NCBI GenBank assembly: GCA_964458085.1
Contig: CAYWFF010000001.1
Coordinates: 890 to 64,889 of the forward strand
Length of the DNA stretch: 64,000 nucleotides
Direction: 5' to 3'
Origin: an uncultured Gammaproteobacteria bacterium
GTDB lineage: Bacteria; Patescibacteriota; Microgenomatia; UBA8517
The position numbers were made by a program, and so were the translations under genes. Shown piece by piece: positions 141-53,881 of the stretch (within the stretch, counting starts at the first letter, position 1; every line of letters starts with the position of its first letter). The notes beneath the pieces are model-generated. The model was not told where the DNA came from. It did not search any database and saw only the letters and a list, made by a program, of their open reading frames with translations.

Positions 141-2285
141 TCAAAGTTCGCAAGTCGAAAAACCGCACTGTTTACATTTATAGCACTTTTTATCTTTCTT
201 CAACGGCACATCACAAGTCGGGCACATCTTGACTTCAGATTTCCTGTTTGCTCCTCCAAATTCAAACACCTGATCCTTTTTAGTTCTATCTCGGTAAACC
301 GTCAAACCTTTACAACCCAATTTCCAAGCTAGTACATAAGCTTCTTCAATATCATTAGGAGAAGCAGTTGAGGGCATGTTTATAGTTTTGGTAATTGCAT
401 TATCAGTCCACTTTTGGAAAGCTGCCTGCATTTTGATGTGATCACGCCAGTCGATGTCGTGAGCCACTTTGAAAACACGTTTAATGTCTGTAGGAATTTC
501 TTCTATATCCTGGATACTACCGTGACTTTCTACAATTTTTTGGATTAGGTCCTCTGAATAGATTTTTCTTTCTTTCAATTTTTCAACCAAAGTAGGTACA
601 ATTGTCCGAAGCCGCATGCCTTCCATAACATTTTGTTCATAGGCAAGAGCAAAATAAGGTTCAATCCCGAAAGAAGTCTCGCAAATTACTGCGTTACCGC
701 TTGATGGCGGAAAAGTAAGAAGAGCAACATTTCTAGGTTTTCTCTTTTTATTTGCCCAGATGGAATCAGTGACAAATGGAAACGGTCCTTTTTCATCAGC
801 CAGATCACAAGATGCATCAAATGCAGCAGTGTACATAGTTTTGGTAACTTTTTCAGCTAAATCAAAGGCTTCTTCTGAGTCATATGGAATATCAAGAAGC
901 GCCAAAGCCTCTGCCCAACCCACTGCTCCCATTCCGATCCGCCGGTGATTTCTCACTGCCTGCTGAACTTCTGAGACAGGAAACCATGACGCATCTATTA
1001 CGTTGTCCATAAGCCTGGTTGCAACTTTTACCACTTCACTTAGATGATCGTGATCAAACTTATTGTCTTTTATAAATTTTGTGAAATTCACATACCCTAA
1101 ATTACAAGATTCAAAAGGGAAAAGAGGTTCTTCCCCGCAAGGATTTGTAGCGGCAATCGGTCCGCGTTTTTTAAGAAGCGGATTTCCGAGTGCAGTTCCT
1201 TTGTTAATTGCAGATAAATTAATAATCCCCGGATCCCCGGTTTGCCAAGCCATTGTTGCCATCAAATCTAAAATGGATTTTGCGTTCACCGTGTTTACAA
1301 CTTCTTTAGTTCTTGGATTTACAAGATCCCAATTTTTACCTTTAAGGGCAGCTTCCATAAAGTCATCAGTAATGCCTACTGAAATATTTGTTTTAGGTAA
1401 ATAACCGTCTGTTTGTTTAGCGGATATAAAGTTAAAAATATCAGGATGGTCAGCGTTAAGTATCGCCATATTGCCCGACTCATATTTTCCCTCCTGCCTG
1501 AAAAGACTGGTCATCAGATCAAACATTTCAATCATTTTGACCGGACCTGCTGCAAGTTCAGGGATCCCACCTACCAAATCCCCCTCAGGCCGGATGTTAG
1601 AGAAATTGTATCCGCAACCCCCTCCGTGTTTTTTAATGAGTGTGGATTTATGCAATATCTCAAAAATATCGTTAATGTCATCTGTCATAGGCCAGACAAA
1701 ACAATTTGCCAACTGAGGAGTTTGCTTGCCTGCGTTTGCGAGAGTCCGGGTTCCGGGTAAAAATTCAAATGACTCCATAATTCCTAAAAACTTACTAAAC
1801 CACTTTTCCTGTTTTGCCTTGGTTTTTTCAACAGAAGAGAGTGTTTTTGCAACACGGGTAAGCATTCCTTTTGGAGATTCTATAATTTTCCCCGCTTTGT
1901 CCCTGCGTAGGTACCTCATCTTTAAAATGTAAAGCGTGTTGTATGAAAGCCCTATGTCGTCTTTTACCCCCAATGCATTTTTATCCTGTTTAATATGTTT
2001 CTTATTTTCTCGGAAGCGTATGTAGGCTTTTGCAGTCTTTGCATGTCCGCGCTCAATTAAAACCTTTTCCACAATTTCTCCGATTTCTGATGTTAAAACC
2101 GCTTCGCCATTCGGATAACGATTGTTGACAAATGCCACAACTTCCCCGGTAATTTGTTCTGCCAAAGTTTTATCACTCCCGCCTACACTTTGGGCAGCAA
2201 GCCAAATACTGGTGAGGATTTTTTCCGGGCTAAAGACTTCTTTTTGGCCGATATTTTTTAGTACTAGTTTTTCTTGTTTTGCCAT
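141..2285 (-). CDS. nrdJ: class II (adenosylcobalamin-dependent) ribonucleotide reductase, paralog 1
   Basis: Active-site NPCGE motif (thiyl Cys-Glu), conserved N-terminal Cys (ANCFVW) and ESCNL Cys, no glycyl-radical motif, C-terminal CxxC...CxxC zinc ribbon; 714 aa. Confidence 0.8.
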   Translation of the reverse strand: MAKQEKLVLKNIGQKEVFSPEKILTSIWLAAQSVGGSDKTLAEQITGEVVAFVNNRYPNGEAVLTSEIGEIVEKVLIERGHAKTAKAYIRFRENKKHIKQDKNALGVKDDIGLSYNTLYILKMRYLRRDKAGKIIESPKGMLTRVAKTLSSVEKTKAKQEKWFSKFLGIMESFEFLPGTRTLANAGKQTPQLANCFVWPMTDDINDIFEILHKSTLIKKHGGGCGYNFSNIRPEGDLVGGIPELAAGPVKMIEMFDLMTSLFRQEGKYESGNMAILNADHPDIFNFISAKQTDGYLPKTNISVGITDDFMEAALKGKNWDLVNPRTKEVVNTVNAKSILDLMATMAWQTGDPGIINLSAINKGTALGNPLLKKRGPIAATNPCGEEPLFPFESCNLGYVNFTKFIKDNKFDHDHLSEVVKVATRLMDNVIDASWFPVSEVQQAVRNHRRIGMGAVGWAEALALLDIPYDSEEAFDLAEKVTKTMYTAAFDASCDLADEKGPFPFVTDSIWANKKRKPRNVALLTFPPSSGNAVICETSFGIEPYFALAYEQNVMEGMRLRTIVPTLVEKLKERKIYSEDLIQKIVESHGSIQDIEEIPTDIKRVFKVAHDIDWRDHIKMQAAFQKWTDNAITKTINMPSTASPNDIEEAYVLAWKLGCKGLTVYRDRTKKDQVFEFGGANRKSEVKMCPTCDVPLKKDKKCYKCKQCGFSTCEL

Positions 2286-2327
2286 AAAACTGGTTTAGTT
2301 CAATCGTTATAAAAAACTCTTACTTTT

Positions 2328-4670
2328 CTAGATTTTGCATTTGCTCCAACCGCATTCTTTGCAAGTCACACAACCGCCTTCAAATTCAACAACCCCTCCG
2401 CATTCCGGACACTCTTTTTCGTCGTAAACTTCAACTTGTGCAATTGCCTGACCTGTTAATTTTTTAGACGAAGCTTTCTGTTTAATGCCGGCATTTAAAA
2501 CCTGATCATCTTTACTGCCGTCCCGATAAATAGTAATTCCTTTACAACCCAATTTCCATGCTAAAAGATAGGCTTTTTTAACATCACCAACCGTTGCTGA
2601 ATTTCTGAAATTAACCGTTTTTGAAACTGAATTATCGGCATAGCGTTGGAAAGCTCCTTGTATCCGAACATGCCACTCAGGGTCAATATCGTGAGTTGTA
2701 ACAAAAACTTTCTGGATATCTTGGGGTATTTCTTTCATGCCTTGAATCGACCCGTGGTTTTCTGCTATTTTTGCAATTAATTCTTTTGAATATAAACCCC
2801 GCTCTTTTAAAACCGCTTCAAAATTAGGCTCTACATAGAAAAGCGACGCAGTTGAGCGGTTTTTGGAGTCTTCGTTGTAAAAGGACCGTCTGGTATATAC
2901 AAGTGCAAACAAAGGTTCAATCCCAGAAGTTGTATTTCCGATCATTGAAACAGTACCGGTGGGTGCAATTGTAATCATGGTGCAATTTCTGTATTTTTCA
3001 GCAGATCCTTTATAGGTTGATATATCCCAATTAGGGAAAACGCCTCGGGTCTTTGCTAATTCAAGTGACGCATCCTCAGCGTTTTTCTTCACAAATTTTG
3101 CAATTTTGTCGGCAATTCTAACGCCTTCCGCAGTGTTGTAACCCACGCCCATTTTAAATAAAACTTCAGCAAAACCGATCATTCCAACTCCTATTTTCCG
3201 GTTGCCGTATTTAACCAGCCGCTCTGTTTCTGTCAAAACATAGGCATTTACTTCAATCATATTGTCCAAAAACCGAACGACGGTTTTAACGGTTTGTGCC
3301 AAATCGTCCCAATCCATTTCATAGCTTCCGTTCTGTTTCACCAAGTGACTGGCCAAGTGGACAGAAGTCAGGTTGCAGGATTCATACGGCAGTAAAGGCT
3401 GTTCTCCGCAGGGGTTTGTAGCATCCAGTTTTCCCAAAGTTGGCGTGAAATTATCCTCTTCCATCCTATCAAGAAATATCATTCCCGGATCTCCAGTTTT
3501 CCACGCGTGTTCACAAATATCATCAAAGAGTTTTTTCGCTCTGACGGATTTTACCGTAATACCGTTTCTGGGATTCACCAGATTAAAACGTTTATCAGAC
3601 ACTACGGCGTCCATAAATTCGTTGGTTACACCGACTGAAATATTAAAGTTCTTCATCAAACCATCCTGATCTTTAACTGAGATAAATTCATAAATATCGG
3701 GATGTTCAACATTGAGTATTCCCATATTTCCGCCGTGCCTTTTTGCACCCTGAACTATTTTTGAAAGTGCTGCAGAATATACCTGCAGAAAATCAACCGG
3801 TCCTGAAGCGGCGTTGGGAATATTTCTTACTTTATCTCCTTTAAATCTGATTTGACTGAAATTAAATCCTGTCCCACCATAATTCTTCTGAATTAGTGCA
3901 GCGTCTCCCAATGTTTTAAAAATTGCACCTATTGAGTCCGTTACCGGTAAAACAAAACAGGGAGACAATTGCTGAAGGCAAGCTTCATTTCCCGCTTCAT
4001 ACAAAGCACTTCTGGTACACACAAATTTAAAACGCGCCATTTTGTCAAAAAATATTCTGGCAACCTGTTCAACCAGCTTTTCGTCCCCCCAGGTAATCTC
4101 CGCTTTTGCCAAGTGTTTTGCTACCCGCCAAAATATTTGACCCGGAGTTTCCAGAAGATCCCCGCTTGAGTCCTGTTTGGAACATCGGGAAACCAACGTG
4201 AGTTTAGCGTTTTCTGTCATTTTAGGTTCCCACATTTTATAAGAAGATTTTTTTGCACTTAGCTTTCTCTCTTTAAAGAGAATGTAATATTTTGCAGCTT
4301 TGAAGTATCCCGCTTCAGCTATAATCGGTTCTACAATGTCCCGGATTTTTTTGGTAGTAATTGTCTCCTTGTCGATTTCTGAAAGAATAATGTAAACTTT
4401 TTTAAAGATGTCCTTTGCGGTTTTTTGACTGTATGTCTTAGTGTCTTTGCCGACGAGAATTATACTTTTACTTAGTTTTTGTAAACTGAATTTTTCTTTA
4501 TCCCCTGTACTTTTGATTACCGTTTCTATTTTCAAGTGAGGCAGTGAAGCTGCCGAACTGCTTATTTTTAAATCACCATAACTAACAGTGGCTAACATTT
4601 CACCCGGAGGGCTGCCTCTACCGTTTGTTGATTTTTGGAGGTTTTTTAAACTGCCGTTATTTTTTTTCAT
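2328..4670 (-). CDS. nrdJ: class II ribonucleotide reductase, paralog 2
   Basis: NPCGEQPLLPYESCNL motif block, conserved Cys set, C-terminal Cys4 ribbon; 780 aa; diverged from paralogs 1 and 3. Confidence 0.8.
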   Translation of the reverse strand: MKKNNGSLKNLQKSTNGRGSPPGEMLATVSYGDLKISSSAASLPHLKIETVIKSTGDKEKFSLQKLSKSIILVGKDTKTYSQKTAKDIFKKVYIILSEIDKETITTKKIRDIVEPIIAEAGYFKAAKYYILFKERKLSAKKSSYKMWEPKMTENAKLTLVSRCSKQDSSGDLLETPGQIFWRVAKHLAKAEITWGDEKLVEQVARIFFDKMARFKFVCTRSALYEAGNEACLQQLSPCFVLPVTDSIGAIFKTLGDAALIQKNYGGTGFNFSQIRFKGDKVRNIPNAASGPVDFLQVYSAALSKIVQGAKRHGGNMGILNVEHPDIYEFISVKDQDGLMKNFNISVGVTNEFMDAVVSDKRFNLVNPRNGITVKSVRAKKLFDDICEHAWKTGDPGMIFLDRMEEDNFTPTLGKLDATNPCGEQPLLPYESCNLTSVHLASHLVKQNGSYEMDWDDLAQTVKTVVRFLDNMIEVNAYVLTETERLVKYGNRKIGVGMIGFAEVLFKMGVGYNTAEGVRIADKIAKFVKKNAEDASLELAKTRGVFPNWDISTYKGSAEKYRNCTMITIAPTGTVSMIGNTTSGIEPLFALVYTRRSFYNEDSKNRSTASLFYVEPNFEAVLKERGLYSKELIAKIAENHGSIQGMKEIPQDIQKVFVTTHDIDPEWHVRIQGAFQRYADNSVSKTVNFRNSATVGDVKKAYLLAWKLGCKGITIYRDGSKDDQVLNAGIKQKASSKKLTGQAIAQVEVYDEKECPECGGVVEFEGGCVTCKECGWSKCKI

Positions 4671-4709
4671 AAATATAACTAATCACTAAATACTAAAACT
4701 CACCTGTCG

Positions 4710-7172
4710 TCAACACTCTGAATATCCGCAACCATGACATGTTTTGCAACCCATTTCGTGTACTAAAGTTGCGTTTCCGCATGAAGGGCACATATCTGCC
4801 TGTTTTGTAACTAATTCCATTTGAGCAGGAACTGCTTGCTCTTGTAAAGGAAGAGTCTGCTGCTCCTCGGCATAGCTGTTTCCGTTGCCGTTTATAGCAT
4901 GAGGGTCTTGTTTCTCTTTACCCGAAAGCATTCCCATATCCATAGCAAGCGCTTTTGCTATAGCATCGGGAAGCGATAGTATTTTCTCTGATCCGAAACC
5001 TACTGTCCGAGCTCCCCCAATACCCATAAGCTGATCGATTATAAATACTGCCCGCTCTCTCGTGCTTAGGTTGCTGCCGAATCTCAATGATTTCGAAATT
5101 AACCTGCCTAAAGCTTCCGCCATAGCCTGAACATCACTCCCCGCACGGCCGATATTTATAAACAACTCAACCGGCGCTCCCGTCTCATCGTGGTTAACTG
5201 TAATAAACGCCGTCCCCACCGGAGTTTTCAGGCGATAAGTTGCGCCAATTACTTTAGTGGGGCGAATCCAATTGTAGGACTTTTGCAATTCGCCATTTAC
5301 GTTTTCGGGTGAAATTTCACTTTTACCTGCTTCTTTACCTTTAGAGCTTTCGTCTGCCCTGATTAATGTTCCCTCACGCGATCCTTCTCGCATATAAGAA
5401 ATTCCCTTACATCCCGTTTCGTAAGCAAGTTCATATAGTTTTTTAACATCGTCCACGCTGTGAGTTTTTGGCGCGTTTACGGTTTTACTAATGGAAGAAT
5501 CGGTATAATGCTGAATTAATGATTGAATTTGTACATGCTCCGCAGGAGTTAAATCATCAGCAACAACAAAATATTCCGGCATAGTTTCAGTTCCGTTTTC
5601 ATCAACCCACTCCTGATATAACGGGTGGTACATAGTTCTCTCGCCTAGTCGATCCTTTTGGATATAAGAAAAAGAAAAGACCGGTTCTATTCCAGATGAT
5701 GCTCCTGCTAAAAGCGCAATTTTCCCGGTCGGTGCTTCAGTCAGGATAAGTGCATTTCTTATCCCGTGTTTTTTAATATTTTTCCGAATGCCTTGAGGCA
5801 TGGTCCTCATAAATCCGCTGGCAAGAAACTTGTCTGCCATGAACTGCGGGAAAGCCCCTTTTTCCTTTGCCAGATCCACTGACGTTTCATAAGCGACATC
5901 CCGAAGCGTCCGGTAAATTTTTTCAATCACTTCAAGAGACTTCTTGGATCCATAGCGAATTTTCATTTTTATAAGAGCGTCAGCTAAACCCAAAGTTCCC
6001 AGCCCAATACGTCTCTCACGCGCCTGAACTTCCTCTATTTCGGGATATAAATATTTCTCGGCATCAACTGCATTATCCAGGAACCGCACTCCTGAGCGGA
6101 CAACATCAGAAAACTCTTTATAGTCAAAAAGACCCCCGGAGACAAATGAGGAAAGATTGATTGAGCTTAAATTACAAACACCCCACGCAGGTAATCCCTG
6201 TTCGCCGCAAGGGTTTGTAGCAATGTTTTTTTCAAAGTACCAGGTGTTGTTCATTTCGTTGTATCTATCCATGAAGACTACTCCCGGTTCAGCCGAAGCC
6301 CAAGCAGAGTTACAAATTTTGTCCCATAGATAGCGGGCTTTTTCTGTTTTATACACCCTTACAGGGTGGCCTTTAGATTCCCAGTCGGACATATCTCCCT
6401 GCCAGTCTGTCCGGTAGTGAGGTGAGTCGGTATCCGGGAATTTAAGATCCCAATTGGCATCACTTTTTACAGCCTTCATAAAAGAATCTGAGACACAAAC
6501 GCTTAAATTTGCTCCTAAAATTTTCCCCTGTTCTTTTTTGACAGTAATAAATTCCTCCAAATCAGGATGCCAATCCCACAACATAATCATAAGAGCTCCT
6601 CTTCTGGTCCCTCCCTGTTGAATAATGTCATGAGCAGCCACAGAATAAATATTTGCCCAGCTAACTGCTCCCGAACTTGTACCATTAACTGACTTTAAAT
6701 AAGATCCACGCGGCCGCAGGCTTGAGAGATTAAAACCAACTCCTCCGCCCCGAGCACTTATCTCAGTCATTTGTTCAAGTGTTTTAATTATGCCTTTTCT
6801 GGTATCTTCGGGACTAGGTATTACAAAACAGTTAATCATAGTCGTGTCAGTACCTGTTCCTGCGGTTGTCAAAAATCGGCCTGCGGGACAGAATCTAAAA
6901 TCAGTCATTGCATCAAAGAACTTTGCTTCCCATTCTTTTTTCAACTTTGGCGTTTTTTCTACTTGAGCAAGAGCTTTGGCGACTCTTTTCCACATTTGCT
7001 CTGGATATTTTTCAAGCGGGCTGCCGACTTCGTCTTTCAAGGAATAGCGGTCAAGGAACAGTTTCTGTCTTATACCGGAAAGCTCGGTTCCATTGTCGAG
7101 TTCAAAATAATACCGGTTGGAGCCTGAATATGCTTTTCTTTTTGTTTTTTTTGCAGAACTTTGTAGTTGCAT
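4710..7172 (-). CDS. nrdJ: class II ribonucleotide reductase, paralog 3
   Basis: NPCGEQGLPAWGVCNL motif block, conserved Cys set, C-terminal Cys4 ribbon; 820 aa. Confidence 0.8.
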   Translation of the reverse strand: MQLQSSAKKTKRKAYSGSNRYYFELDNGTELSGIRQKLFLDRYSLKDEVGSPLEKYPEQMWKRVAKALAQVEKTPKLKKEWEAKFFDAMTDFRFCPAGRFLTTAGTGTDTTMINCFVIPSPEDTRKGIIKTLEQMTEISARGGGVGFNLSSLRPRGSYLKSVNGTSSGAVSWANIYSVAAHDIIQQGGTRRGALMIMLWDWHPDLEEFITVKKEQGKILGANLSVCVSDSFMKAVKSDANWDLKFPDTDSPHYRTDWQGDMSDWESKGHPVRVYKTEKARYLWDKICNSAWASAEPGVVFMDRYNEMNNTWYFEKNIATNPCGEQGLPAWGVCNLSSINLSSFVSGGLFDYKEFSDVVRSGVRFLDNAVDAEKYLYPEIEEVQARERRIGLGTLGLADALIKMKIRYGSKKSLEVIEKIYRTLRDVAYETSVDLAKEKGAFPQFMADKFLASGFMRTMPQGIRKNIKKHGIRNALILTEAPTGKIALLAGASSGIEPVFSFSYIQKDRLGERTMYHPLYQEWVDENGTETMPEYFVVADDLTPAEHVQIQSLIQHYTDSSISKTVNAPKTHSVDDVKKLYELAYETGCKGISYMREGSREGTLIRADESSKGKEAGKSEISPENVNGELQKSYNWIRPTKVIGATYRLKTPVGTAFITVNHDETGAPVELFINIGRAGSDVQAMAEALGRLISKSLRFGSNLSTRERAVFIIDQLMGIGGARTVGFGSEKILSLPDAIAKALAMDMGMLSGKEKQDPHAINGNGNSYAEEQQTLPLQEQAVPAQMELVTKQADMCPSCGNATLVHEMGCKTCHGCGYSEC

Positions 7173-7175
7173 ATT

Positions 7176-7616
7176 TTAATCTTTTATTGCTTTGGCAAAA
7201 TCTTCAAGGTCTTCAAATTCCAAGTACACACTGGCAAATCTAAGCCAAGCCACTCTGTCCACTTTCTTTAATCTTTTTAAAACAGCACGACCGATCGCTT
7301 TTGAGGATACTTCTTCTTTCTCTTTTCTAAGCATCTCCCGCTCGACAGAATCAATCACAGAATTAATAAAATCGAGAGGAAGCGGCCGTTTTTCAACCGC
7401 TCTCAAAATCCCGCGTTTCACTTTTTCTCTGTCAAAAAGTTCCCGTCTGCCATCTTTTTTAATTACCCATATACCGTTGCCTTTAACCGTTTCATAAGTA
7501 GTAAAACGCTTTTTGCACTTAATACATTCTCGTCTTCTTCGTATGCTATGACCTTCGTCCCCTGAGCGAGATTCCAATACTTGCGTATTGGCAGTTGCAC
7601 AAAACGGACATTTCAT
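7176..7616 (-). CDS. nrdR: transcriptional repressor NrdR (zinc ribbon + ATP-cone)
   Basis: N-terminal MKCPFC...CIKCKKRF zinc ribbon followed by ATP-cone-like region; 4 bp upstream of nrdJ paralog 3, same strand. Confidence 0.85.
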   Translation of the reverse strand: MKCPFCATANTQVLESRSGDEGHSIRRRRECIKCKKRFTTYETVKGNGIWVIKKDGRRELFDREKVKRGILRAVEKRPLPLDFINSVIDSVEREMLRKEKEEVSSKAIGRAVLKRLKKVDRVAWLRFASVYLEFEDLEDFAKAIKD

Positions 7617-7706: not shown

Positions 7707-7752
7707 GTCACTATTGGTAGCGACAGAAACAATGATTAAACACTAGATGTGT
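7707..7752. promoter_or_regulatory. two palindromes about 30 bp apart upstream of nrdR (candidate NrdR-box pair)
   Basis: GTCACTAttggTAGCGAC (7707-7724) and ACACTAGATGTGT (7740-7752), centres about 30.5 bp apart; resembles tandem NrdR-box geometry but sequence deviates from the acaCwAtATaTwGtgt consensus. Confidence 0.25.
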
Positions 7753-7929
7753 AAAGTCAACTACTAAGATATACGTCAAAACATATCACTACAAGCACAA
7801 CGTCAGCCTAAAAAAAGCAATAAATTAAACTTCTTTTTCCGCGAAAAAACAATTCAGGTTAAAGCGGTTATAATGCGATAAATTGGGGGTAAATCTATGA
7901 GGTAATTATTTTAACAAAAGTAAAGTTAA

Positions 7930-8598: not shown

Positions 8599-9255
8599 TC
8601 AGCGAAAAAGCATTATCGGCCATTCCCAAAAAATATGAAGTAGGATGGATGCCGTAACATTTTTAGTTCTGGCAAATACAAAAGCAGACCCTATACCGAA
8701 AATTGTCGTCAATATTAGAAATATAATTGAAGTGTTGGTATCGATATCAAACCAAAAAAGAGTAATAGGAATATGAATCAACCCCCAAACAACGCTGGTG
8801 GCAAGATTTGCTACCCATTCATTCGAGAGGGCATGCCAAACCCTGTTAAAAATAAAACCGCGAAAAACAATTTCCTCTGAAATGGCTGTTGCAAGAGACA
8901 GCCCTATTGAAACAAAAAAGAGCTTATCTCCTACATTTGCCCCAAAATCAAATTCTTGATACTTTATATAATTGACAAAAACTCCCTCAATTGCAAATAT
9001 AAGCCCTAATCCGATTGACAAATATATAGCAGGGAATAAGTTTTTTGAAGTTATCCCAATGGTTTCCAGAGAGGAATGTTCTTTTTTTAGAAAATAAATG
9101 ACCGGAGTCAGCCATAAAATAGGTTTAACAACAAGTTCTTCGATTTCGACCGGTAATTTAAACAACAACCTGTAAAAGCCCCAAAATACCAGTATATAAG
9201 CCGCGAGCAAAGTGGCGTGTTTTATGGCGGTTTCTTTTTTGGGCATTTTACTCAA
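8599..9255 (-). CDS. CPBP-family intramembrane metalloprotease (CAAX protease-like)
   Basis: Multi-TM with EEIVFRGFIF (EExxxR), and HIFWEW (His motif) characteristic of CPBP/Abi family. Confidence 0.6.
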   Translation of the reverse strand: MSKMPKKETAIKHATLLAAYILVFWGFYRLLFKLPVEIEELVVKPILWLTPVIYFLKKEHSSLETIGITSKNLFPAIYLSIGLGLIFAIEGVFVNYIKYQEFDFGANVGDKLFFVSIGLSLATAISEEIVFRGFIFNRVWHALSNEWVANLATSVVWGLIHIPITLFWFDIDTNTSIIFLILTTIFGIGSAFVFARTKNVTASILLHIFWEWPIMLFR

Positions 9256-9773
9256 TCAGGCTGCATATTAATTGTACACTCTTTATAAGCAAAATCTATT
9301 GCATGGACAACATCTTTAACCCTAGTCTGAGCTTCCATTAAAGAAACTGCATTTGCTTCATTCGGAAACCAATGAAAAAGAAGATTGCGGGACATTTTCC
9401 ATGTTTCCCACAGTTCTTTTGCCAATGCCTGCCCTCCACAGTAACGTTCAATTTTTTCATATACACTCTCTTCATTAGGATCCTTTTCAAGAGAAGGATT
9501 GAGTGCCCGGCCGATTCTGAAACGTTTACCGTCATATTCGCCTTTAGTGATAAACCCCATATCCAAAAAGAACTTTTTCAAAAATCCTTCATAAGCTTTT
9601 GCTGCAGGAAAAACAATAAAAGAATAGTCATGAAATTCTTCATCCCACCTTTCTACCCTGTCACAAAGAATTAAGGATTCTTTTAAGAGTTCCTGAAGAT
9701 CGTGCGCAATATAGGTCCACCACTGTCTTTTTTCCAAATCCTGTATATCGTACATAGTGTTATTGTAGCCCAA
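9252..9773 (-). CDS. hypothetical protein
   Basis: 173-aa ORF overlapping neighbours by 4 and 14 bp, consistent with operon; no motif recognised. Confidence 0.4.
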   Translation of the reverse strand: MGYNNTMYDIQDLEKRQWWTYIAHDLQELLKESLILCDRVERWDEEFHDYSFIVFPAAKAYEGFLKKFFLDMGFITKGEYDGKRFRIGRALNPSLEKDPNEESVYEKIERYCGGQALAKELWETWKMSRNLLFHWFPNEANAVSLMEAQTRVKDVVHAIDFAYKECTINMQPD

Positions 9774-38700: not shown

Positions 38701-38765
38701 TCATTCATCTTAGCTTTCAAATGTTCTACTTGTAAATAGCCTAAGGATTGTAATATGATGACTCA

Positions 38766-38899
38766 GGTTGTGTTCAAGGAATACGGTCAAATCCGTAGCT
38801 GTACCGCAACTGTAACCTTTCGATTTTCGAAGGGAAGCCAGAAAACTAACAACCGCTGCCAAATTTATATTGCTTTTGGCGTATCCCGAGTAGGAAAAT
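38766..38899 (+). ncRNA. cobalamin (B12) riboswitch, copy 1
   Basis: AAGGAAUACGGUCAAAUCCGUAGCUGUACCGCAACUGUAACC ... GGGAAGCCAG core matches the B12-element pattern (GGGAAg-ACGGUG-AAUCCg-AGCnG-CCGCnACUGUaA; GGGAAG box); conserved AUCCCGAGNAGGAA segment overlapping the RBS of 38900. Confidence 0.75.
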
Positions 38900-39347: not shown

Positions 39348-39974
39348 ATGAAAAGATCCCAAACTTACACACCCTTTGCGAAACGCCTTGTAATTGGTCT
39401 TTTTGTTATTGCTTTTTTAGAACGAGTAATATTTGATCTGGGTGCGAATGTTGAACTTGTTACGGCTGCTTTCATACTTGGTAGTGCTTACTTGGGAAGA
39501 AATCAGGTTTTATGGTTAGTTTTGGTTCTTATGGTTTCCACAGACCTTTTACTGGGAAACACAAATATATTTCTTTTTACCTGGAGCGGTTTTCTCGTTC
39601 CGGCATTTTTTGCTGGAGGCTTAACTAAAAAACTTATGAGGTTTATCAAACACTCCAAAGTCCGCTTTCCCAATAAATTACTGAAGGGTATAGCACTCAC
39701 TTCCCTAGGATTAACTTCCAATCTCTTTTTCTTCTTTTGGACTAATTTTGGAGTATGGCTTTTGGACTCTTACGGCATGTATGCAAATGATTTCGAAGGG
39801 CTTATGCTTTGTCTTATAAACGGCCTGCCCTTCTTGCGCTCACAAATACTAAGTACTCTTATCTTTATTCCCGTTTTCGCTATAGCAGTAGAAATCTCCA
39901 CTCTTCCTGTCTTCAAACTATTGACCAATAAATTGCTGTTTTCCAATAATTTCAAAGTTCTGGTCAAAAATTAG
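39348..39974 (+). CDS. integral membrane protein, possible ECF-type S component for cobalamin (CbrT-like)
   Basis: 208 aa, about 6 TM; co-transcribed position after riboswitch-controlled secreted protein. Confidence 0.4.
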   Translation: MKRSQTYTPFAKRLVIGLFVIAFLERVIFDLGANVELVTAAFILGSAYLGRNQVLWLVLVLMVSTDLLLGNTNIFLFTWSGFLVPAFFAGGLTKKLMRFIKHSKVRFPNKLLKGIALTSLGLTSNLFFFFWTNFGVWLLDSYGMYANDFEGLMLCLINGLPFLRSQILSTLIFIPVFAIAVEISTLPVFKLLTNKLLFSNNFKVLVKN

Positions 39975-39977
39975 AGA

Positions 39978-40103
39978 GATTGTGTTTAAGGAACTACGGT
40001 GTAAATCCGTGACTGTGCCGCAACTGTAACCCTTCGATTTTCGAAGGGAAGTCAGAAAACTAACAATTCTCTTCGTATATAAGCAACCATCCCGAGCAGG
40101 AAC
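39978..40103 (+). ncRNA. cobalamin (B12) riboswitch, copy 2
   Basis: near-identical core to copy 1 (AAGGAACUACGGUGUAAAUCCGUGACUGUGCCGCAACUGUAACCC...GGGAAGUCAG) and the same AUCCCGAGCAGGAA segment before ATG at 40104. Confidence 0.75.
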
Positions 40104-40928
40104 ATGACGTACAGCGAACACAAAGAACTCCCTCATATTACTACCTGCCGTTTTTTGGAAACTTGGCAAGGCATAAATCCCAACCGTTTAATCGCCGAAC
40201 TAATATCAGTAAACAATGAAACACATAGGAATCCTGACCCTTATCATTTCAGTTTGAGACAGGGAAAATTGATAGATCCCGAAACTGGAAAACCTATAAC
40301 TGATTTTATTTCTGATGGGGTTGAGTTAGAGGTAGTTTTAAAATTACAGGATTGGGCTAACAAAAAAGATGCAGGCCTCGCCTATTGGGTAAGCCCGAGA
40401 CTTGTGGATGTATATCCAAGTGAAAAGTTAATCATTCACAGAATCGCATATACTCTGACCGGCGAAAAAATTGTTTTGAATAGTGCAATTCTTTTTGAAG
40501 CAGAACTTGATAACCCCGAAACTCTTAGGGATACACTTTTTGAATCAGATGATACAGAAGAAAATATTCTTAAGTTATTGGCTTGGGTTCAGGAAGTGTC
40601 AGGAGAAGCAGTGAATTTAACTTCTCACAAAACACATAAAGACCAGGCTCAGTACTTTGCCAAACAAATCATAAATGGGGTGGATCATTCCCAGATTATT
40701 CAAGAAATGCTTCAAACAGGATTTTTAGGTGAATTCTCAATCAGTTGTAAGACGGTAAATAACCCAGCCAGTTTTTCAAATTATATTCTCTCCCGAGCTG
40801 CAATAAATTCTATCGAGACTAGTGAAGGAAAGTATGTAGAAAAATGTGGCAATTGCGGAAAAGAAATTAAAGCAGTTATCAGAAAAGGCTATAAATGCAG
40901 CTGCGGAGGTGTATATGAGGGCTGCTAA
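40104..40928 (+). CDS. uncharacterised cytoplasmic protein with C-terminal Cys4 zinc ribbon, under cobalamin-riboswitch control
   Basis: 274 aa, no TM, C-terminal CGNCGKEIKAVIRKGYKCSCGG; no known adenosyltransferase/Cob motifs seen. Confidence 0.5.
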   Translation: MTYSEHKELPHITTCRFLETWQGINPNRLIAELISVNNETHRNPDPYHFSLRQGKLIDPETGKPITDFISDGVELEVVLKLQDWANKKDAGLAYWVSPRLVDVYPSEKLIIHRIAYTLTGEKIVLNSAILFEAELDNPETLRDTLFESDDTEENILKLLAWVQEVSGEAVNLTSHKTHKDQAQYFAKQIINGVDHSQIIQEMLQTGFLGEFSISCKTVNNPASFSNYILSRAAINSIETSEGKYVEKCGNCGKEIKAVIRKGYKCSCGGVYEGC

Positions 40929-41072: not shown

Positions 41073-41385
41073 TCCCCGGTAGCTCAGTGGTAGAGCAGGA
41101 AGCTGTGAAGTGACGCAGCCTTCAACAGAGATGTTGAAGAGAAAATTGGGTGAATTGCGGGAAGCCTAAAGCTAAAGCTAAGGTAATCCGCAGCCAAGAC
41201 CTATTTGATATTATCAAACAGGTAAGGTTCAGAGACTAGGTGATTACACCCAGAGTCGAGTCTGACTCGACGAGAGCGCCCAACACCCTACCCTTTTAGG
41301 AAGGGTGATGAGATAGTCCACGCTATATGGAAACATATGGATCAGTGTAACTTCAAGGTCGTAGGTTCGAGCCCTACCCGGGGAG
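41073..41385 (+). tRNA. tRNA-Asn(GUU) interrupted in the anticodon loop by a group I intron
   Basis: exon 1 41073-41106 (UCCCCGG UA GCUC AGUGGUA GAGC A GGAAG CUGU) + exon 2 41348-41385 (UAA CUUCA AGGUC GUAGG UUCGAGC CCUAC CCGGGGA G); 7-bp acceptor, U1-A72, G73, body closely resembles bacterial tRNA-Asn; splice junction chosen by exon-terminal U / intron-terminal G and P1 pairing GCUGU/GCAGC. Confidence 0.7.
41107..41347 (+). ncRNA. group I self-splicing intron (241 nt)
   Basis: canonical core elements readable: P (GAAUUGCGGGAAG), Q (AAUCCGCAGCC), R (GGUUCAGAGACUAG), S (AGAUAGUCC); terminal G; 5' exon ends in U. Confidence 0.75.
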
Positions 41386-42876
41386 CACATTAGTACGATA
41401 TTCTGGCAAAAGCAGTACATCGTAAGGTTTTTTGAGGCGAAAATCGAGTTTTCCGTCTTTCAAAATAAGGTTCTCACCGAGGTCGAGAATCAAATCACGT
41501 TTTTCTTCCTTTGTCCCATTCTCCAATCTTTCTTTAGCTGAAAACGCATTATCGAGATATCGTGTGCACATTTCCAACCAAGTATCGGCTGAGTAATCAT
41601 TATCTTCCAACTTTTCTTTGATAGACTTTTTCTCATTGAGAAGTTCTGACTTCTGCTCCAGAAACTCTTCCTTAGTTAGTTCTTGATCTGCTCTCATCCT
41701 GACCAGATACTTAATTCGAGTTTGGATGGCATTATATTGATTCTGTAAATATCTTGCTCGTTTGGAAAACTTTTCTACTTCTTCTTGGTATTTGGCTTTG
41801 AATAACTCAATACCTAATTTCCATGTCTCTTCATCAATCTTGATCTGCACCATGTTTTCGAGCAGAAGTTTTTCTAATCTTTTGCCTGTTATTGCTTGTT
41901 GTTTGCAAATACCTCTTCTGTGAGTGCAATGGTGGTAAGTATAGACAACTGTTCTGTTGGTACGTTTGAAATACTTTGTTTTGACTGTTGTTGTGATTTG
42001 GCAGCCACAATCGCCACAAGTAATCAATCCGTTATAGGTATGCTCCCATACTTTCAATTTAGGCCGAGAACGGAGTTGTAATGCCATTTGCACATCCTCA
42101 AACAACTTCTTGGTTATTAGTGGTTCATACGTACCTTCAAACAACTCGCCATTATGGTGGAAGTATCCATAATAAACTATGCAGTTTAGAATGTTGTGTA
42201 CATGGCTTTTACTGATTTTCTTACCTCGCTTAGTTCGTAATCCTTTATCGTAAAGATGTTTGGCAATCTTTGAGAGGGGGTTACCTTCTTTCGCCATTTG
42301 AAAAGCCTGTTGAATCAATGGGCCTTCAAACGGATGTGGCCTCATAATTCGTTGTCCTCGAATACCAAAGCCTTCATATCCAACTATAGCTGGTCTGGGA
42401 TACTCACCACGTTCGCACTTATGATTTAGTCCTCGTTTTACGTTTTGACTTAGATTTCTTGAATACTGATTAGCCATCCCAAAGTGGATTTGCAGAATCA
42501 GGTGATCTGATTCCTGTGTATAGACAGAACCAGTTGCTGTTCTAATTTCCTTGAGCACACCATCTTGGAGGAGTTGTAAGATCATTCCTCCTTCTTCTGG
42601 ATTACCACAAAGACGATCTTCTTTCCAACAAAGAAAAGCATTTGCTTTTCCAGTCTTTATCAACTGGATTGCCTTATCAAAGTCTGGTCTGTTGTGAGGC
42701 TTGAAAGCTGATCTACTCTCAGAGAATCGGTATTTGACTCTGAGTCCTTCTCGTTTTTCAACCTTTACATTTTCAGCATGTTGATCTTTGAGAGAAGCTA
42801 CTTGTCGCTCTTTCGCTTCGGACGATTTGCGACCATATTCTATATGCACAATTTCATTATCTATACTCATATTCAT
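41374..42876 (-). CDS. large serine recombinase (integrase)
   Basis: N-terminal YGRKSSEAKERQ catalytic Ser motif, recombinase domain, C-terminal CGDCGC...HHC zinc ribbon + coiled coil; 500 aa. Confidence 0.8.
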   Translation of the reverse strand: MNMSIDNEIVHIEYGRKSSEAKERQVASLKDQHAENVKVEKREGLRVKYRFSESRSAFKPHNRPDFDKAIQLIKTGKANAFLCWKEDRLCGNPEEGGMILQLLQDGVLKEIRTATGSVYTQESDHLILQIHFGMANQYSRNLSQNVKRGLNHKCERGEYPRPAIVGYEGFGIRGQRIMRPHPFEGPLIQQAFQMAKEGNPLSKIAKHLYDKGLRTKRGKKISKSHVHNILNCIVYYGYFHHNGELFEGTYEPLITKKLFEDVQMALQLRSRPKLKVWEHTYNGLITCGDCGCQITTTVKTKYFKRTNRTVVYTYHHCTHRRGICKQQAITGKRLEKLLLENMVQIKIDEETWKLGIELFKAKYQEEVEKFSKRARYLQNQYNAIQTRIKYLVRMRADQELTKEEFLEQKSELLNEKKSIKEKLEDNDYSADTWLEMCTRYLDNAFSAKERLENGTKEEKRDLILDLGENLILKDGKLDFRLKKPYDVLLLPEYRTNVLPG

Positions 42877-47201: not shown

Positions 47202-48821
47202 TCAGTTGGCAAATGTGGGCGTGTAGTTATTTGACATAAGAAACTCTCGATAATAGTTTCCCACATAGTCAGTTAGTGCGAGCCAAGTATCACTTATCCG
47301 AACTAGCCTCAAATTTTCAAGTACTTTGAAGGCATCGGTATAAGTAACATTTACAACTTCTTTATCTTTTATCCAGATTTTGCATGCAAACCATCTTAAG
47401 AACTGTTTTTTCTCCTTTTTATTAAATGCTTTATATAGCTTGGGTAATTGCTTTAAGAATTTAATAATAGTATCTATTTTCTTGTCATCCAAGTTAGCTG
47501 AAGGCTTGGAAAGCTTTGCAATATCAGCCTCTACGGATTTAAGTTCATCCTTCAAAGGTAAATACTTCTTTTCAATTCTATCTTGAGGCATTACTTCTGC
47601 AATCATCTGATCTTCAAGTTTGTCCATTTTCTTTTCTATCACTGCTTTTCGGTCTTTCAGTGCCTTTGTTCGTGATGGAATATCATCTCCTTGTTCTTTC
47701 ATAACCTCTTCGAGCTCAGTTCTCAAGCCCTTGAAAAATCTCTCATCAAACTTGATGTTAGCCATAAACTTTTCTAATTGCTTATGAACTTTATCCATCG
47801 GAGCATAGGATTGTTTGCAAACCTTTCCTTTTCTTGAACCTAGACATCGATAATACTTAAAAACCCTTCCATCTGGTTTGACGTGTTGCTCACCAGACAT
47901 AAGAGTTCCACATTCATCACAAAAGACCAATCCTGCAAGAAACCAATTGTGTTTTCTTGACCTGTCAGCACCTTTGTTATGTTTAGCTAAGATTGCCTTA
48001 GACTTTTCTATATCTTCCATTGTTACTATTGATTTATGTTTACCGTCATACATTTTCCCACAATATAACACCTTTCCAGCATAGCGTACATCAGTAAGTA
48101 TTCTGTGAATATTGCTGGAACTAACTCTTTTTCCGTTCTTGGTTCTAAAGCCTTCTTGATACATTTCTTCTTCAAGGGAATAGATGGAGTGATTACCTGT
48201 ATGAAATCTTCTGAAAATTTCTTTAATAAAGTAGACTCTTTCTTTATCAATTTTCCAGGCAACGCCTTTTTTATAAGAGTTTAGATATCCAATGACTGCA
48301 ACTCCTGGTTGAAAACCTTTCTCTGCAAGTGCTACCATTGTTCTTTTTGTCTTCTGTCCTGTTATTTCCCTTTGAAGCTGATTTGCTCCAGCCATTACTA
48401 AGTCCACAAATTTACCAACTGGATCATCACCAAAGTTAGGTTGTTGTGTGGCTATTAGTTCAACACTGTGTTTTTTAAGAAACGATTTTACAGCTAAATG
48501 GTCTTGTGCATCTCTTGCGAATCTATCTGTTTCCTCTAACAAAACAATATCAACATCCTTATCTTTCTCACATCGCTCAAGCATTCTTGTAAATTCTGGC
48601 CTACCAGTTGTACTACCACCACTCTTGCCTCCGTCTTTATAGATTTCTAATATTCTCCAGTTATGTTCTCTTGCATATTTAACCAACCTATCTACTTGAT
48701 CATCTAGAGAATGTCCTTCCCGAACCTGTCTATCTGTGCTTACTCTTGCGTATATTAGACAGCTTTTGATTCTAGCTTGATCTTCTATATGAGAAATATT
48801 TGTTGTATATGTCATTTTCAA
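47202..48821 (-). CDS. large serine recombinase (second copy, distinct sequence)
   Basis: IYARVSTDRQ catalytic motif, recombinase domain, CDECG...YYRC zinc ribbon, C-terminal coiled coil; 539 aa. Confidence 0.8.
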   Translation of the reverse strand: MKMTYTTNISHIEDQARIKSCLIYARVSTDRQVREGHSLDDQVDRLVKYAREHNWRILEIYKDGGKSGGSTTGRPEFTRMLERCEKDKDVDIVLLEETDRFARDAQDHLAVKSFLKKHSVELIATQQPNFGDDPVGKFVDLVMAGANQLQREITGQKTKRTMVALAEKGFQPGVAVIGYLNSYKKGVAWKIDKERVYFIKEIFRRFHTGNHSIYSLEEEMYQEGFRTKNGKRVSSSNIHRILTDVRYAGKVLYCGKMYDGKHKSIVTMEDIEKSKAILAKHNKGADRSRKHNWFLAGLVFCDECGTLMSGEQHVKPDGRVFKYYRCLGSRKGKVCKQSYAPMDKVHKQLEKFMANIKFDERFFKGLRTELEEVMKEQGDDIPSRTKALKDRKAVIEKKMDKLEDQMIAEVMPQDRIEKKYLPLKDELKSVEADIAKLSKPSANLDDKKIDTIIKFLKQLPKLYKAFNKKEKKQFLRWFACKIWIKDKEVVNVTYTDAFKVLENLRLVRISDTWLALTDYVGNYYREFLMSNNYTPTFAN

Positions 48822-51435: not shown

Positions 51436-51638
51436 GTTTATTTAATCCTCCTTGTTTTCGGAACAAATTGATAATTCGGGTAGACGTTAGTATTTATAGA
51501 GATATACAAGAAGCACTCACCAAAATGACATCTGCCTACTAGTATTTGTCTAGAAACCGTAATGTCTACCACTTTTCTTGTTTTATCCCTATTTTTAGGT
51601 GTATTTGTTGTTTTCATATGTCTACCTAATGTCTACCC
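51422..51638. repeat. array of GGTAGACG / CGTCTACC motifs (2 in one orientation, 3 in the other)
   Basis: tGGTAGACG 51422, gGGTAGACG 51468, aATGTCTACC 51561, ATGTCTACC 51618, ATGTCTACCC 51629. Confidence 0.45.
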
Positions 51639-53881
51639 AAACATCTCTAGATTGGGAATTCCATATCTGCGTAATAAATCTTTGACAATGCTGACTTTGA
51701 CTTTATACCTACAATAACCTCTTACTTTTCTTCCTCTTATACCAAATCTTTTAAGTGCTGCACCTACACCTCTACTGGTAAAGTACTGTCTTTGATCTAT
51801 TTCAAGATATTCGCTTGCTTTATCTTTTATCTCTTTGTTTTCAAGTTCTACTGTTTCCTGTTGACCAACAAGTTCTCTTAATGCAATTAGGACTGCGGAG
51901 TCAAAATCATCAAGGTCGACACTAGAGGTTTCTTCTGCTCTTCTTATTGCCTCATCTCTTATGTTTTCAAAAGTTCCTGGAAGCTCTGTATCTATTATTT
52001 TTGCAATAGAGAGTAGGGGTTTCCAAAGCTCGTTTTGGCGGTTAAGTAATGCGTTTACTTTAGAATCTGAGCTATATATTTTTGCTATCTTTTCGGAATA
52101 ATCCAGTGAAAATGAGTATAAAAGATTTCTTAGATAACTCCAGTCTTCAGACCCTTCTGTAACAGCGGTATTTCCTTTATCTGGGTTATTGGTTCTTACC
52201 ATTGTTAGGGTAATTGACCTGTCTTCTAACACATCATCAAGTCCTGATATGTTGGCAATGGCTTTAGGGCTATAGATTTCAAACGCCTCAATATCAAAGT
52301 TGCCTTTTTTGTTTTTTGTGGTTCTGTATGCAGGTGCTCCTCTTTTGTAGCCTGAATTTAACAATTCCCTTAATTCTTGTTTTCTTGTCTTATCTGAAAG
52401 CTGTTCACCTTCATCAAGTGCCAGTGTCGGTCTTTTTGCTTCAACCAATCTAAAGAGCACTGCAGGAGAGATATTACTTGATATGATTGCGTTAAATGCT
52501 AATTTTTCAATAATAAGAAGTGTTTTGGTTTTTCCACTTCGTTTTACTCCAACAAGGTATAAATACGGATACGCATCAAAAACAGGGAAACAATATGTTC
52601 CCATCAGCCAAAGAGCAATAATATCTGCATCATTCTCATCTCTGAAATCTACAAATTTTTTTAACACTTCTTTTATTTCTATAAAGGCAAGGGAAGGAGA
52701 AACTTTATCTTTATTGACTAGAAACTTGTTAATATCTTCTACTTTCCATCTCTGAATGTTGTTTGGAACAAGTGATACGTCACGTAGACTGTATGTCTTA
52801 TTTTCAAAATCTATATAACCATGTCGGTTTTTGTCTATTCCAACTTGTTTATTGCTAGTAATTACAACTACAGCTTTAGATTTCTCATCATCTACTTGAA
52901 CTGGTAGCTCGAATGTATAAAACAATTTGCTGTCTTTATAGTCTACGGCAGGATGAATTTTCGAATCTGACTCTTCATTTAGTAGCTTCACTTTAGGTTT
53001 ATGAGACTTAGCTTCATCAAGCAATTTTTGAAAGTCATCAGCAGAATGTCCTTGCTTCACAAAAAAGTCTGTTAAGTCTACTTTTTCTTCACCGTTTTTA
53101 GGAAGTTTAACAATCCTGGCTCTGTCACCAATAAAACTTGCTACTTTTTTAGCACCTGATACACCTGCTTCATCAGTATCAAAACAAATATATATTTGTT
53201 TTACACTTTCGAACTCTTTTACCCACTCTTTTTTAAAAGTACTTGCACCTGCAGTACTGCTTACGGAAGGAAAGCCGTTTTGCGTGGCTATTATAGCGTC
53301 AAACTCACCTTCACAGATAACTATGTAGGAATGGTTATTCTCTAGTGCCACACTATTAAAGATCGAGGCTTTACCACCTTTTTCATTCCAATATTTTTGT
53401 CCCTTATTCTTTTTTGGATCACGGCGGTGACGAAGGTTTACTAAAACATTATTAACAAACACGGGAAGTACGATACTTTCTCCATCCCATCCGATTCTAA
53501 ACTTGTTTATGGTTTCTTCAGTAAGTCCACGCTCTTTGAGTAAATACTCTTTTATACTGTTGGGTATGTTTTGATGATAGTTGTCAACATTTTTAATGCT
53601 AAAGTTTTTTTTCTTTAGCTTTACTTTATATTCAATTCCCCTGTTAATTACCTGTTTTTCAAGTTGAGGCAGGTTATTATCTCCAAGTTTTTCAGTTATG
53701 TTCTGCCAACTGCCTTTAGCTCCACAGCGATGACAAATATAACATCCATCAGCGTTGTTGATATATAAATGCTTTTTTTATCATCACAGAATAAGCATTG
53801 TATTTGTGCTTCTTTGCCTTCGGACACAATTTTGTGTGGTATACTTTTTGCTGACAAGTATTGTTCTACGTTTTGATACAT
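51633..53881 (-). pseudogene. DnaG-type primase (zinc-binding + Toprim) fused to P-loop NTPase, frameshifted within an A7 homopolymer (about 53773-53779)
   Basis: Toprim VICEGEFDAIIATQNGF and Walker A GVKRSGKTKT in 51633-53462 ORF; upstream in-frame extension encodes ...KKHLYINNADGCYICHRCGAKG up to a TAA at 53778-53780; the 53696-53971 ORF in another frame encodes ...QCLFCDDKKSIYI; joining at the A-run restores a CxxC-x16-CxxCHxCG primase zinc ribbon. Confidence 0.6.

Follow-up and report, generated by a model that had tools for sequence, protein, structure and literature searches.

Introduction

Cells obtain the building blocks of DNA solely through ribonucleotide reductase (RNR). The subject of this report is a run of four genes in a 64,000-nucleotide stretch of DNA (positions 890 to 64,889 of contig CAYWFF010000001.1; hereafter the window), in which the repressor gene nrdR is followed by three genes for class II RNRs (NrdJ), here called J1, J2 and J3. 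Several described systems come close to it. The dimeric NrdJd enzymes of Thermotoga maritima (PDB 1XJE/1XJN) and S. nassauensis share with all three proteins the barrel, the N-terminal all-alpha domain, the NPCGE motif, the redox Cys pair and the six-Cys zinc finger, and J1 additionally shares the IscU-like (TSCPD) domain of long class II C-termini (PMC5704485; bioRxiv 10.1101/2022.04.23.489257). Genomes with more than one NrdJ make up 1108 of 24,059 GTDB species genomes; in 69% of these the copies mix both types of the apical motif that contacts the substrate phosphates, and differing phosphate specificity has been proposed as the advantage (Schell et al. 2021, PMC8365446); more generally, several gene sets per RNR class are relatively common (Lundin 2010, PMC3019208). 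In Streptomyces coelicolor, nrdR lies directly upstream of nrdJ and is co-transcribed with it, with two NrdR boxes about three helical turns apart over the promoter (PMC9110341). Finally, Pseudomonas aeruginosa has adjacent nrdJ-annotated genes, NrdJa and NrdJb, that function together (PMC4520616).

The locus described here departs from each of these. Where the dimeric NrdJd systems have one enzyme, the window has three paralogs that appear to be co-transcribed; J2 and J3 lack a PNSP or PAGR loop, the distal phosphate loop and loop 2 of J3 differ, and both J2 and J3 bear ATP-cones, which are present in 11.3% of class II sequences. Compared with the multi-NrdJ genomes of Schell et al. (PMC8365446), the three copies sit in one apparently NrdR-controlled operon of a bacterium of the candidate phyla radiation (CPR), and only the J1 motif has a known meaning. 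Compared with the S. coelicolor operon (PMC9110341), three nrdJ genes rather than one follow nrdR, and the candidate box sequences are off the classical consensus; and while the two P. aeruginosa genes encode halves of one enzyme (PMC4520616), those of the window are each complete. Multi-NrdJ genomes, mixed phosphate motifs within a genome, class II ATP-cones, IscU-like and zinc-finger tails and nrdR–nrdJ operons are thus already documented (PMC8365446, PMC3019208, PMC5704485, bioRxiv 10.1101/2022.04.23.489257, PMC9110341). Literature searches combining CPR or Patescibacteria with NrdJ, and searches for fused or heteromeric NrdJ, returned from the searchable literature no description of a conserved three-NrdJ CPR operon, of the loop variants of J2 and J3, or of a fused double NrdJ. 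An earlier annotation of the window from its letters (the original prediction) had held that one class II RNR normally suffices and that a triplication with such diverged paralogs is unusual; this overstates the case, as multiplicity itself is well documented (PMC8365446; PMC3019208), and what is unusual is the presence of three copies, conserved within a lineage, in a single NrdR-controlled operon of a CPR genome of about 1 Mb.

The reading that we favour on balance is that one NrdR-controlled transcript encodes three independently competent adenosylcobalamin (AdoCbl)-dependent reductases among which labour is divided. We present the evidence for it below, together with the alternatives against which it has to be weighed.

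Results

Three complete class II reductases downstream of nrdR

The four genes lie head-to-tail on the minus strand in the order nrdR-J1-J2-J3 (Table 1). The coordinates given for this tight array in the original prediction are exact, with the correction that the intergenic gaps are 3, 39 and 42 bp and not 3 to 41 bp. The nrdR product scores above the cutoff of TIGR00244 (185.9 bits, cutoff 124.65), and its translation contains the RRRR motif and R17. All three paralogs contain the all-alpha domain (PF00317) and the RNR barrel (PF02867), and all exceed the cutoff of the NrdJ_Z equivalog model TIGR02504 (J1 572.5, J2 620.6 and J3 585.4 bits; cutoff 399.95), falling below those of the class I model TIGR02506 (313, 290 and 320 bits, respectively; cutoff 341) and of the monomeric RTPR model TIGR02505 (55-65 bits for all three; cutoff 340). 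The closest solved structure for each is that of T. maritima NrdJ. No nrdB-like gene was found in the window operon or in orthologous operons, and the strand beta-J is followed by a single Tyr (GISYMREGS, GITIYRDGS and GLTVYRDRT in the three paralogs), with no class I Tyr-Tyr dyad. The layout is also not that of the split NrdJa/NrdJb pair, each gene encoding a whole barrel with its own tail.

The NPCGE finger loop and the redox Cys pair (CFV and CNL motifs) of all three proteins align with the T. maritima structure, in agreement with what had been claimed for them. In samples of 120 homologues per paralog, which also underlie the census of apical loops given below, the thiyl Cys, the Asn and Glu of the finger loop and the redox Cys residues are invariant or nearly so. 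The C-terminal tail of each paralog is a six-Cys array, C-x2-C-x9/10-C-x2-C-x2-C-x4-C, kept in 120/120 (J1), 107/120 (J2) and 115/120 (J3) homologues; a Cys-rich C-terminal ribbon had been predicted correctly, as a Cys4 ribbon, and the array has six Cys residues rather than four. These arrays match the tail of S. nassauensis NrdJ, in which Cys920, 923, 933, 936, 939 and 945 form a zinc finger and a redox pair mediating turnover (PMC5704485).

To compare constraint across the operon, window genes were set against the orthologous operons L002 and L003. The proportion of nonsynonymous differences (pN) is 0.18-0.21 for J1, J2, J3 and nrdR alike, and that of synonymous differences (pS) is 0.78-0.88; synonymous sites are saturated, so that dN/dS is not computable and the two proportions are given separately. 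The equal pN values indicate that all three paralogs are as constrained as the repressor. Judged by conservation of sequence alone, each paralog would be catalytically complete, and the impression recorded earlier that all three are full-length and look competent rather than decayed is borne out by their domains, model scores, tails and nrdR-like pN. The original prediction had also advised a check for intein remnants, and no intein was found within J1, J2 or J3.

As a separate observation, precomputed Pfam assignments place an intein-splicing domain (PF14890) in five J2-like proteins from elsewhere: P0296 (labelled Pacebacteria), P0308, P0327, P0339 and P0348. All of these except P0327 also carry a LAGLIDADG homing-endonuclease domain (PF14528), and the contiguous string NPCGE was not found in any of the five, which points to an intein placed within or next to the catalytic finger loop.

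Substrate and effector loops differ between the paralogs

In RNRs, loop 2 couples the effector to the choice of substrate, and the roles of the KRDG residues in the first strand of the ATP-cone are known from E. coli NrdA. With the apical phosphate loops placed by HMMER alignment to the T. maritima PNSP motif (J1, J3) or by the ungapped alignment between J2 and J3 (J2), the three lineages differ. More than 97% of NrdJ sequences carry either PNSP, associated with ribonucleoside diphosphates (NDP), or a PAGR-type motif, associated with ribonucleoside triphosphates (NTP) (PMC8365446). A canonical loop of this kind (PNSP or P[ASG]GR), which is a common trait of NrdJ and not a defining one, is present in J1 and absent from J2 and J3. 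The J1 homologues have PAGR (66) or PGGR (52), and J1 is predicted from its sequence to be an NTP reductase. Among J3 homologues the loop is PGTR (94) or PGSR (23); this PG[TS]R form, with a hydroxyl residue in position 3 and Arg in position 4, is in the same state as the engineered G68S single mutant, which retained GTP activity at a reduced level and showed traces of GDP activity (PMC8365446). Those of J2 have CAGK (41), CTRS (24), CSGK (20), CTTS (9) or VTRS (6), and Cys-first C-x-x-[KS] loops of the J2 type are absent from the motifs in the main text of PMC8365446.

The differences extend beyond the apical loop. Loop 2 is canonical in J1, reads QGAKR[HQ]GGNM across J2 homologues, and in J3 has a form in which Y, E, S, G, N and M are each 100% conserved. 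The distal phosphate loop is APTG in J1 and J2 and PPSSGNA in J3, conserved at 96-100% at most positions; we take the J3 version to be closer in style to the class I loop PSETSS. ATP-cones (PF03477) are found in J2 (42 bits) and J3 (56 bits), where the first strand reads KSTG and KNIG, respectively, instead of the canonical KRDG, and the Arg is not conserved among J3 homologues. Among the explanations offered in the original prediction, different substrate or effector specificity is therefore the best supported by the sequences, since the apical loop, loop 2, the ATP-cone and the IscU-like domain all differ between the paralogs and each is conserved within its orthologue group.

The same loops can be read in the opposite sense, namely that one or two of the copies are pseudo-enzymes, with J2 and J3, the two that bear ATP-cones, serving a regulatory or scaffolding role. 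In favour of this, both have non-canonical motifs at the phosphate site, loop 2 and the distal loop of J3 have diverged, and a model NrdJ lost its activity when given engineered non-native motifs (PMC8365446). Against this, the minor natural motifs PSMR and PQGSP were found to be active in that study (PMC8365446), and the thiyl Cys, Asn, Glu, redox Cys residues and six-Cys tail are all kept in the J2 and J3 lineages, which would be unexpected of a non-catalytic protein. We consider a pseudo-enzyme role extremely improbable.

The three lineages are old and the operon is conserved

The paralogs are only 34% (J1/J2), 32% (J1/J3) and 37% (J2/J3) identical. In a neighbour-joining tree of 102 sequences (569 core columns, 60 bootstraps; sampling biased toward J2-like sequences), the homologues of J1, J2 and J3 form three clades, each recovered in 60/60 bootstraps. 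J2 and J3 are exclusive sisters in 0/60 bootstraps, and a deep split of J1 and J3 from the rest appears in 28/60. The mean identity of J2 to PNSP-type enzymes of other phyla is 46.6%, compared with 39% to J3 and 34.5% to J1. When 1.84 billion representatives clustered at 50% identity were searched for the J3 lineage, the matches listed were two orthologous representatives (66% and 77% identical), followed by two fused double enzymes at 38-39% identity (840 and 811 bits, each the sum of two units); the other matches listed have at most 45% identity and at most about 570 bits, a score within reach of an ordinary single-unit protein. On sequence evidence, J3 is an isolated lineage, and J1, J2 and J3 are shown to belong to separate ancient NrdJ lineages.

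These results confirm the deep divergence that had been noted for the paralogs, and identities of 32-37% together with separate clades at 60/60 bootstrap rule out a recent duplication into near-identical copies. A phage origin, which had been proposed as one possibility, is not supported: the best phage matches in INPHARED reach only 37.5-41.5% identity, and no close relative of J3 was found in IMG/VR.

The order nrdR-J1-J2-J3 recurs in L001, L002 and L003, the loci closest to the window, with orthologues 70-78% identical to those of the window. L002 is a Candidatus Woesebacteria metagenome-assembled genome (MAG). On the complete Woesebacteria chromosome CP065002.1 the genes run PBP – Rce1-like – DUF5667 – nrdR – J1 – J2 – J3 – MazG – NUDIX – PduO-type adenosyltransferase – DUF6580 – DUF4430, and the upstream neighbours of nrdR (PBP, Rce1-like, DUF5667) are the same in the window. 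At least 10 contigs, matched by their identical lengths, are common to all three homologue lists, a proxy rather than a direct count. From these orthologues, we infer that the host is a Woesebacteria-type CPR bacterium, and the best explanation of the array is that it is the deoxyribonucleotide-supply operon of such an organism. It is worth noting that L001 (CAYTOP010000035.1) and L003 (CAZAUT010000003.1), which are MAGs, carry this Woesebacteria-type operon under the title ‘uncultured Gammaproteobacteria’, and these labels look wrong.

Other CPR relatives have variants of the arrangement. Gottesmanbacteria have nrdR–J1 alone, followed by an adenosyltransferase, DUF4430 and DUF6580; the Microgenomates genome L083 has J1 and a J2-like gene; the large contigs L088 and L089, with orthologues of J1 and J3 and the upstream synteny of the window, have J1–J3–adenosyltransferase without J2; the CPR contig L086 has three RNRs with MazG interspersed, and then Maf and a CobA-type adenosyltransferase; and the Saccharibacteria chromosome L049 has nrdR with three RNR units. 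As J1 always stands beside nrdR in relatives, we treat it as the constant member, and J2 and J3 as accessory.

Two side observations concern the neighbours in these operons. In Gottesmanbacteria (L081/L082, 8001-14250), a single J1-type RNR, a PduO-type adenosyltransferase, a 731-aa protein without a Pfam match, DUF4430 and DUF6580 form what looks like an RNR and B12-salvage super-operon. Genes for the house-cleaning pyrophosphatases MazG, NUDIX and Maf adjoin or interleave multi-RNR operons (L085, 11762-12622; L086, 9205-9567 and 11914-12561), which suggests a link between these operons and a module for sanitation of the deoxyribonucleoside triphosphate (dNTP) pool.

Variation in copy number among CPR relatives bears on a further alternative, that the copies are redundant, a transient surplus from horizontal transfer or duplication whose loss is pending. 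Redundancy has been put forward to account broadly for genomes with multiple gene sets of the same class (PMC3019208), and the narrow J2 clade contains a WWE3 sequence, as could result from exchange between CPR lineages. Opposed to it are the persistence of the three-gene order to the point where synonymous sites are saturated, with pN as low as that of nrdR; catalytic residues that are essentially invariant in the homologue samples; lineage-specific loops that are 96-100% conserved; and the roughly 7 kb that three genes occupy in a genome of roughly 1 Mb. That a CPR genome of this size keeps three apparently co-transcribed enzymes, constrained like their repressor, is a strong argument against redundancy, which we regard as very improbable.

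A promoter-like site with candidate NrdR boxes

Outside coding regions, the operon strand has a sole promoter-like match, upstream of nrdR (Table 1). In an upstream alignment with L001-L003 the block TAGTTGAC is invariant. Two putative NrdR boxes, A and B, flank the -10 element with their centres 30.5 bp apart, and both are conserved in L001-L003 (for box A, its alignment columns); an exact CACTANNNNTAGTG also lies directly upstream of nrdR in L001 and in the Gottesmanbacteria contigs L081 and L082. An NrdR tetramer requires boxes spaced by three helical turns (PMC9110341), and the spacing of about 31 bp, or about three turns, would fit this. A search for the classical 16-mer NrdR-box consensus with up to 3 mismatches gave no match, and the 14-mer palindrome pattern with 2 mismatches allowed is not enriched, occurring 19 times window-wide against 19.8 expected, so that only the position and the conservation of the boxes count as evidence. 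On that evidence, NrdR may regulate its own operon.

The cofactor supply of the enzymes can be approached through their surroundings. PduO- or CobA-type adenosyltransferase genes adjoin the RNR genes in L002, L081, L085, L086, L088 and L089; DUF6580 adjoins the nrd operon in L081 and L085, and stands with DUF4430 in other CPR genomes. The window itself has two cobalamin riboswitches, one upstream of a DUF6580 membrane-protein gene and one preceding an open reading frame (ORF) of 274 aa; both lie outside the nrd operon and provide only a context of B12 supply. The DUF6580 protein and the 274-aa ORF may be components of B12 uptake. The adenosyltransferase genes of orthologous operons and the two riboswitches are context in support of the predicted AdoCbl dependence of J1-J3.

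This context raises the alternative that the paralogs are specialised not for substrate but for cofactor (a scavenged cobamide) or for reductant or electron donor, a difference that would show in the contrast between the IscU-like domain of J1 and the short tails of the other two. The CPR-type B12-scavenging setting (riboswitch-controlled DUF6580 here, DUF4430 and adenosyltransferases in orthologous operons) and the restriction of the TSCPD/IscU-like domain to J1 favour it, as does the fact that the native reductant of zinc-tail NrdJ is unidentified (PMC5704485). None of the sequence features that we examined bears on cobamide selectivity, and the conserved differences between the paralogs fall in the substrate and effector loops. 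Such a specialisation is, in our judgement, very improbable.

Fused double NrdJ proteins and the possibility of a hetero-oligomer

In dimeric NrdJ the specificity site is formed at the dimer interface. Relatives of the paralogs include single polypeptides with two complete NrdJ cores, one TSCPD domain and one zinc tail: a protein of 1376 aa on the Saccharibacteria chromosome OZ246411.1 (L049:9973-14103), and P0363 (1351 aa), P0364 (1600 aa), P0269, P0273, P0274, P0276 and P0344, the complete ones spanning 1351-1600 aa. Both cores carry CFV, NPCGE and KTxN, and the single TSCPD domain and six-Cys tail stand at the very end. The apical loop is PNSP, PASP or PAGR in unit A and a short Cys-first ‘CGG’ or a ‘PGQ’ in unit B. 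The two units are 43-46% identical to one another, and both are closest to J2.

Such Rosetta-stone proteins favour the alternative that J1, J2 and J3 assemble into a single hetero-oligomeric class II RNR, in which the canonical J1 pairs with J2 and/or J3 in an asymmetric dimer or a higher oligomer, with active sites, tails and regulatory domains working together. The tight packing of the J1-J3 genes, read as co-transcription, fits this too, and electron transfer by the Cys-rich tail of NrdJ can reportedly run between subunits, with the tail driving the formation of higher oligomers (PMC5704485). However, each paralog of the window has its own complete active site and six-Cys tail; relatives with J1 alone, with J1 and a J2-like gene, or with J1 and J3 indicate that no fixed partnership is required; and neither J1 nor J3 has an orthologue among the fused units. 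We therefore hold a hetero-oligomer to be a possibility that deserves attention while being clearly less likely than separate enzymes. A bolder form of the proposal has two branches: either the tandem CPR paralogs are parts of a hetero-oligomeric class II RNR that has so far gone unrecognised, with the fused Saccharibacteria and Andersenbacteria polypeptides as its single-chain form and with a canonical active site coupled to one that has a remodelled phosphate pocket, or J2 or J3 reduces a form of substrate that no known RNR accepts, for example one in another phosphorylation state. This proposal is speculative and we rate it as unlikely.

Other features of the window

Upstream of the operon, two genes beyond its neighbours, lies an ORF with sub-threshold matches to RNase LS/RnlA toxin domains (HEPN_RnaseLS, RnlA-toxin_DBD). 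A tRNA-Thr gene interrupted by a group I intron was missed by the default tRNA scan and recovered by ARAGORN with introns allowed. Near it lie two large serine recombinases and a primase-like gene, and between about 48 and 59 kb, where several ORFs have no Pfam match, the GC content drops to about 0.34 from about 0.40. One or two mobile elements appear to have integrated here.

Table 1. Positions of the nrd operon, its putative control elements and other features of the window.
Feature	Position	Strand	Product	Details
nrdR	7176..7616	-	146 aa	zinc ribbon aa 1-42; ATP-cone aa 51-136
J1 (NrdJ)	4710..7172	-	820 aa	apical loop PAGR aa 96-99; loop 2 QQGGTRRGALM; NPCGE aa 320-324, thiyl Cys322; no ATP-cone; TSCPD (IscU-like) domain aa 652-744; six-Cys tail aa 795-820
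J2 (NrdJ)	2328..4670	-	780 aa	ATP-cone aa 50-134, first strand KSTG; apical loop CTRS aa 218-221; loop 2 QGAKRHGGNM; NPCGE aa 419-423, thiyl Cys421; no TSCPD; six-Cys tail aa 754-778
J3 (NrdJ)	141..2285	-	714 aa	ATP-cone aa 7-96, first strand KNIG; apical loop PGTR aa 177-180; loop 2 RQEGKYESGNM; NPCGE aa 381-385, thiyl Cys383; distal loop PPSSGNA aa 526-532; no TSCPD; six-Cys tail aa 688-712
Promoter-like site	7760..7732	-		-35 TTGACT (7760..7755), 17-nt spacer, -10 AATCAT (7737..7732); consensus match only
Putative NrdR box A	7752..7740	-		ACACATCTAGTGT; palindrome inside the promoter spacer
Putative NrdR box B	7722..7709	-		CGCTACCAATAGTG; pattern CACTAnnnnTAGTG with one mismatch
ORF upstream of the operon	9252..9773	-	173 aa	sub-threshold domain matches
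Cobalamin riboswitch 1	38751..38868	+		about 480 nt upstream of the DUF6580 gene
DUF6580 gene	39348..39974	+		membrane protein
Cobalamin riboswitch 2	39963..40082	+		precedes the 274-aa ORF
ORF	40104..40928	+	274 aa	no Pfam match
tRNA-Thr(UGU)	41073..41386	+		anticodon loop split by a 241-nt group I intron (Rfam RF00028, 119 bits)
Two large serine recombinases and a Toprim/DUF3631 primase-like gene	41374..42876; 47202..48821; 51633..53462	-

Discussion

A division of labour among three complete enzymes accounts for the features of this operon in the following way. A single promoter, overlapped by two palindromes resembling NrdR boxes, would drive nrdR and the three class II RNR genes as one transcript, which NrdR would shut down as dATP rises. 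Each enzyme would generate its thiyl radical on the finger-loop Cys, use the Cys pair of its active site as reductant and be re-reduced by its own six-Cys zinc tail. J1, with its constant place beside nrdR, its canonical NTP-type loop and its IscU-like domain, would be the core enzyme, and J2 and J3, with remodelled phosphate pockets and specificity loops, would be accessory specialists. The altered apical and distal phosphate loops, the altered loop 2 and the ATP-cones are the grounds on which we propose that the three would split ribonucleotide reduction according to phosphorylation state, and perhaps also according to base or effector. Co-transcription argues against isozymes for different conditions and favours simultaneous, complementary function. 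The arrangement would suit an organism expected to scavenge both ribonucleotides and cobalamin, that is, a B12-scavenging nucleotide auxotroph.

Several points weigh on the other side. Co-transcription from one promoter fits the subunits of one complex equally well, and the fused double NrdJ proteins of Saccharibacteria, Andersenbacteria and other metagenomic sources, in which a canonical unit is joined to a J2-like one with the ‘CGG’ loop, hint at heterodimers. The link from motif to specificity has been validated for PNSP and PAGR-type loops only, not for those of J2 and J3, and regulation of activity by dATP through the ATP-cones of J2 and J3, which lack the KRDG strand, is doubtful. The sequences of the candidate NrdR boxes depart from the classical consensus. 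The tree is a neighbour-joining tree with sampling biased toward J2-like sequences, and it does not resolve the deep branching (J1 with J3 in 28/60 bootstraps). Finally, 64 kb of the genome are in view, and other RNR classes may exist elsewhere in it. Taking these points together with the evidence above, we continue to lean towards three competent reductases with divided labour.

Schell et al. (2021, PMC8365446) asked expressly why some organisms keep several class II enzymes. The three natural enzymes of this operon vary in both of the loops that grip the phosphates of the substrate as well as in the specificity loop, with J3 as a natural version of an engineered intermediate. The operon could therefore serve as a natural test case for why microbes keep several NrdJ proteins, and for how NDP and NTP specificity and allosteric cross-talk evolve, and the fused double-barrel relatives hint at a quaternary form of RNR that may be new. 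CPR bacteria (Patescibacteria) are described as limited in what they can synthesise and as dependent on hosts (bioRxiv 10.1101/2025.01.22.634366); the operon suggests that such an organism invests in turning scavenged ribonucleotides and cobalamin into dNTPs.

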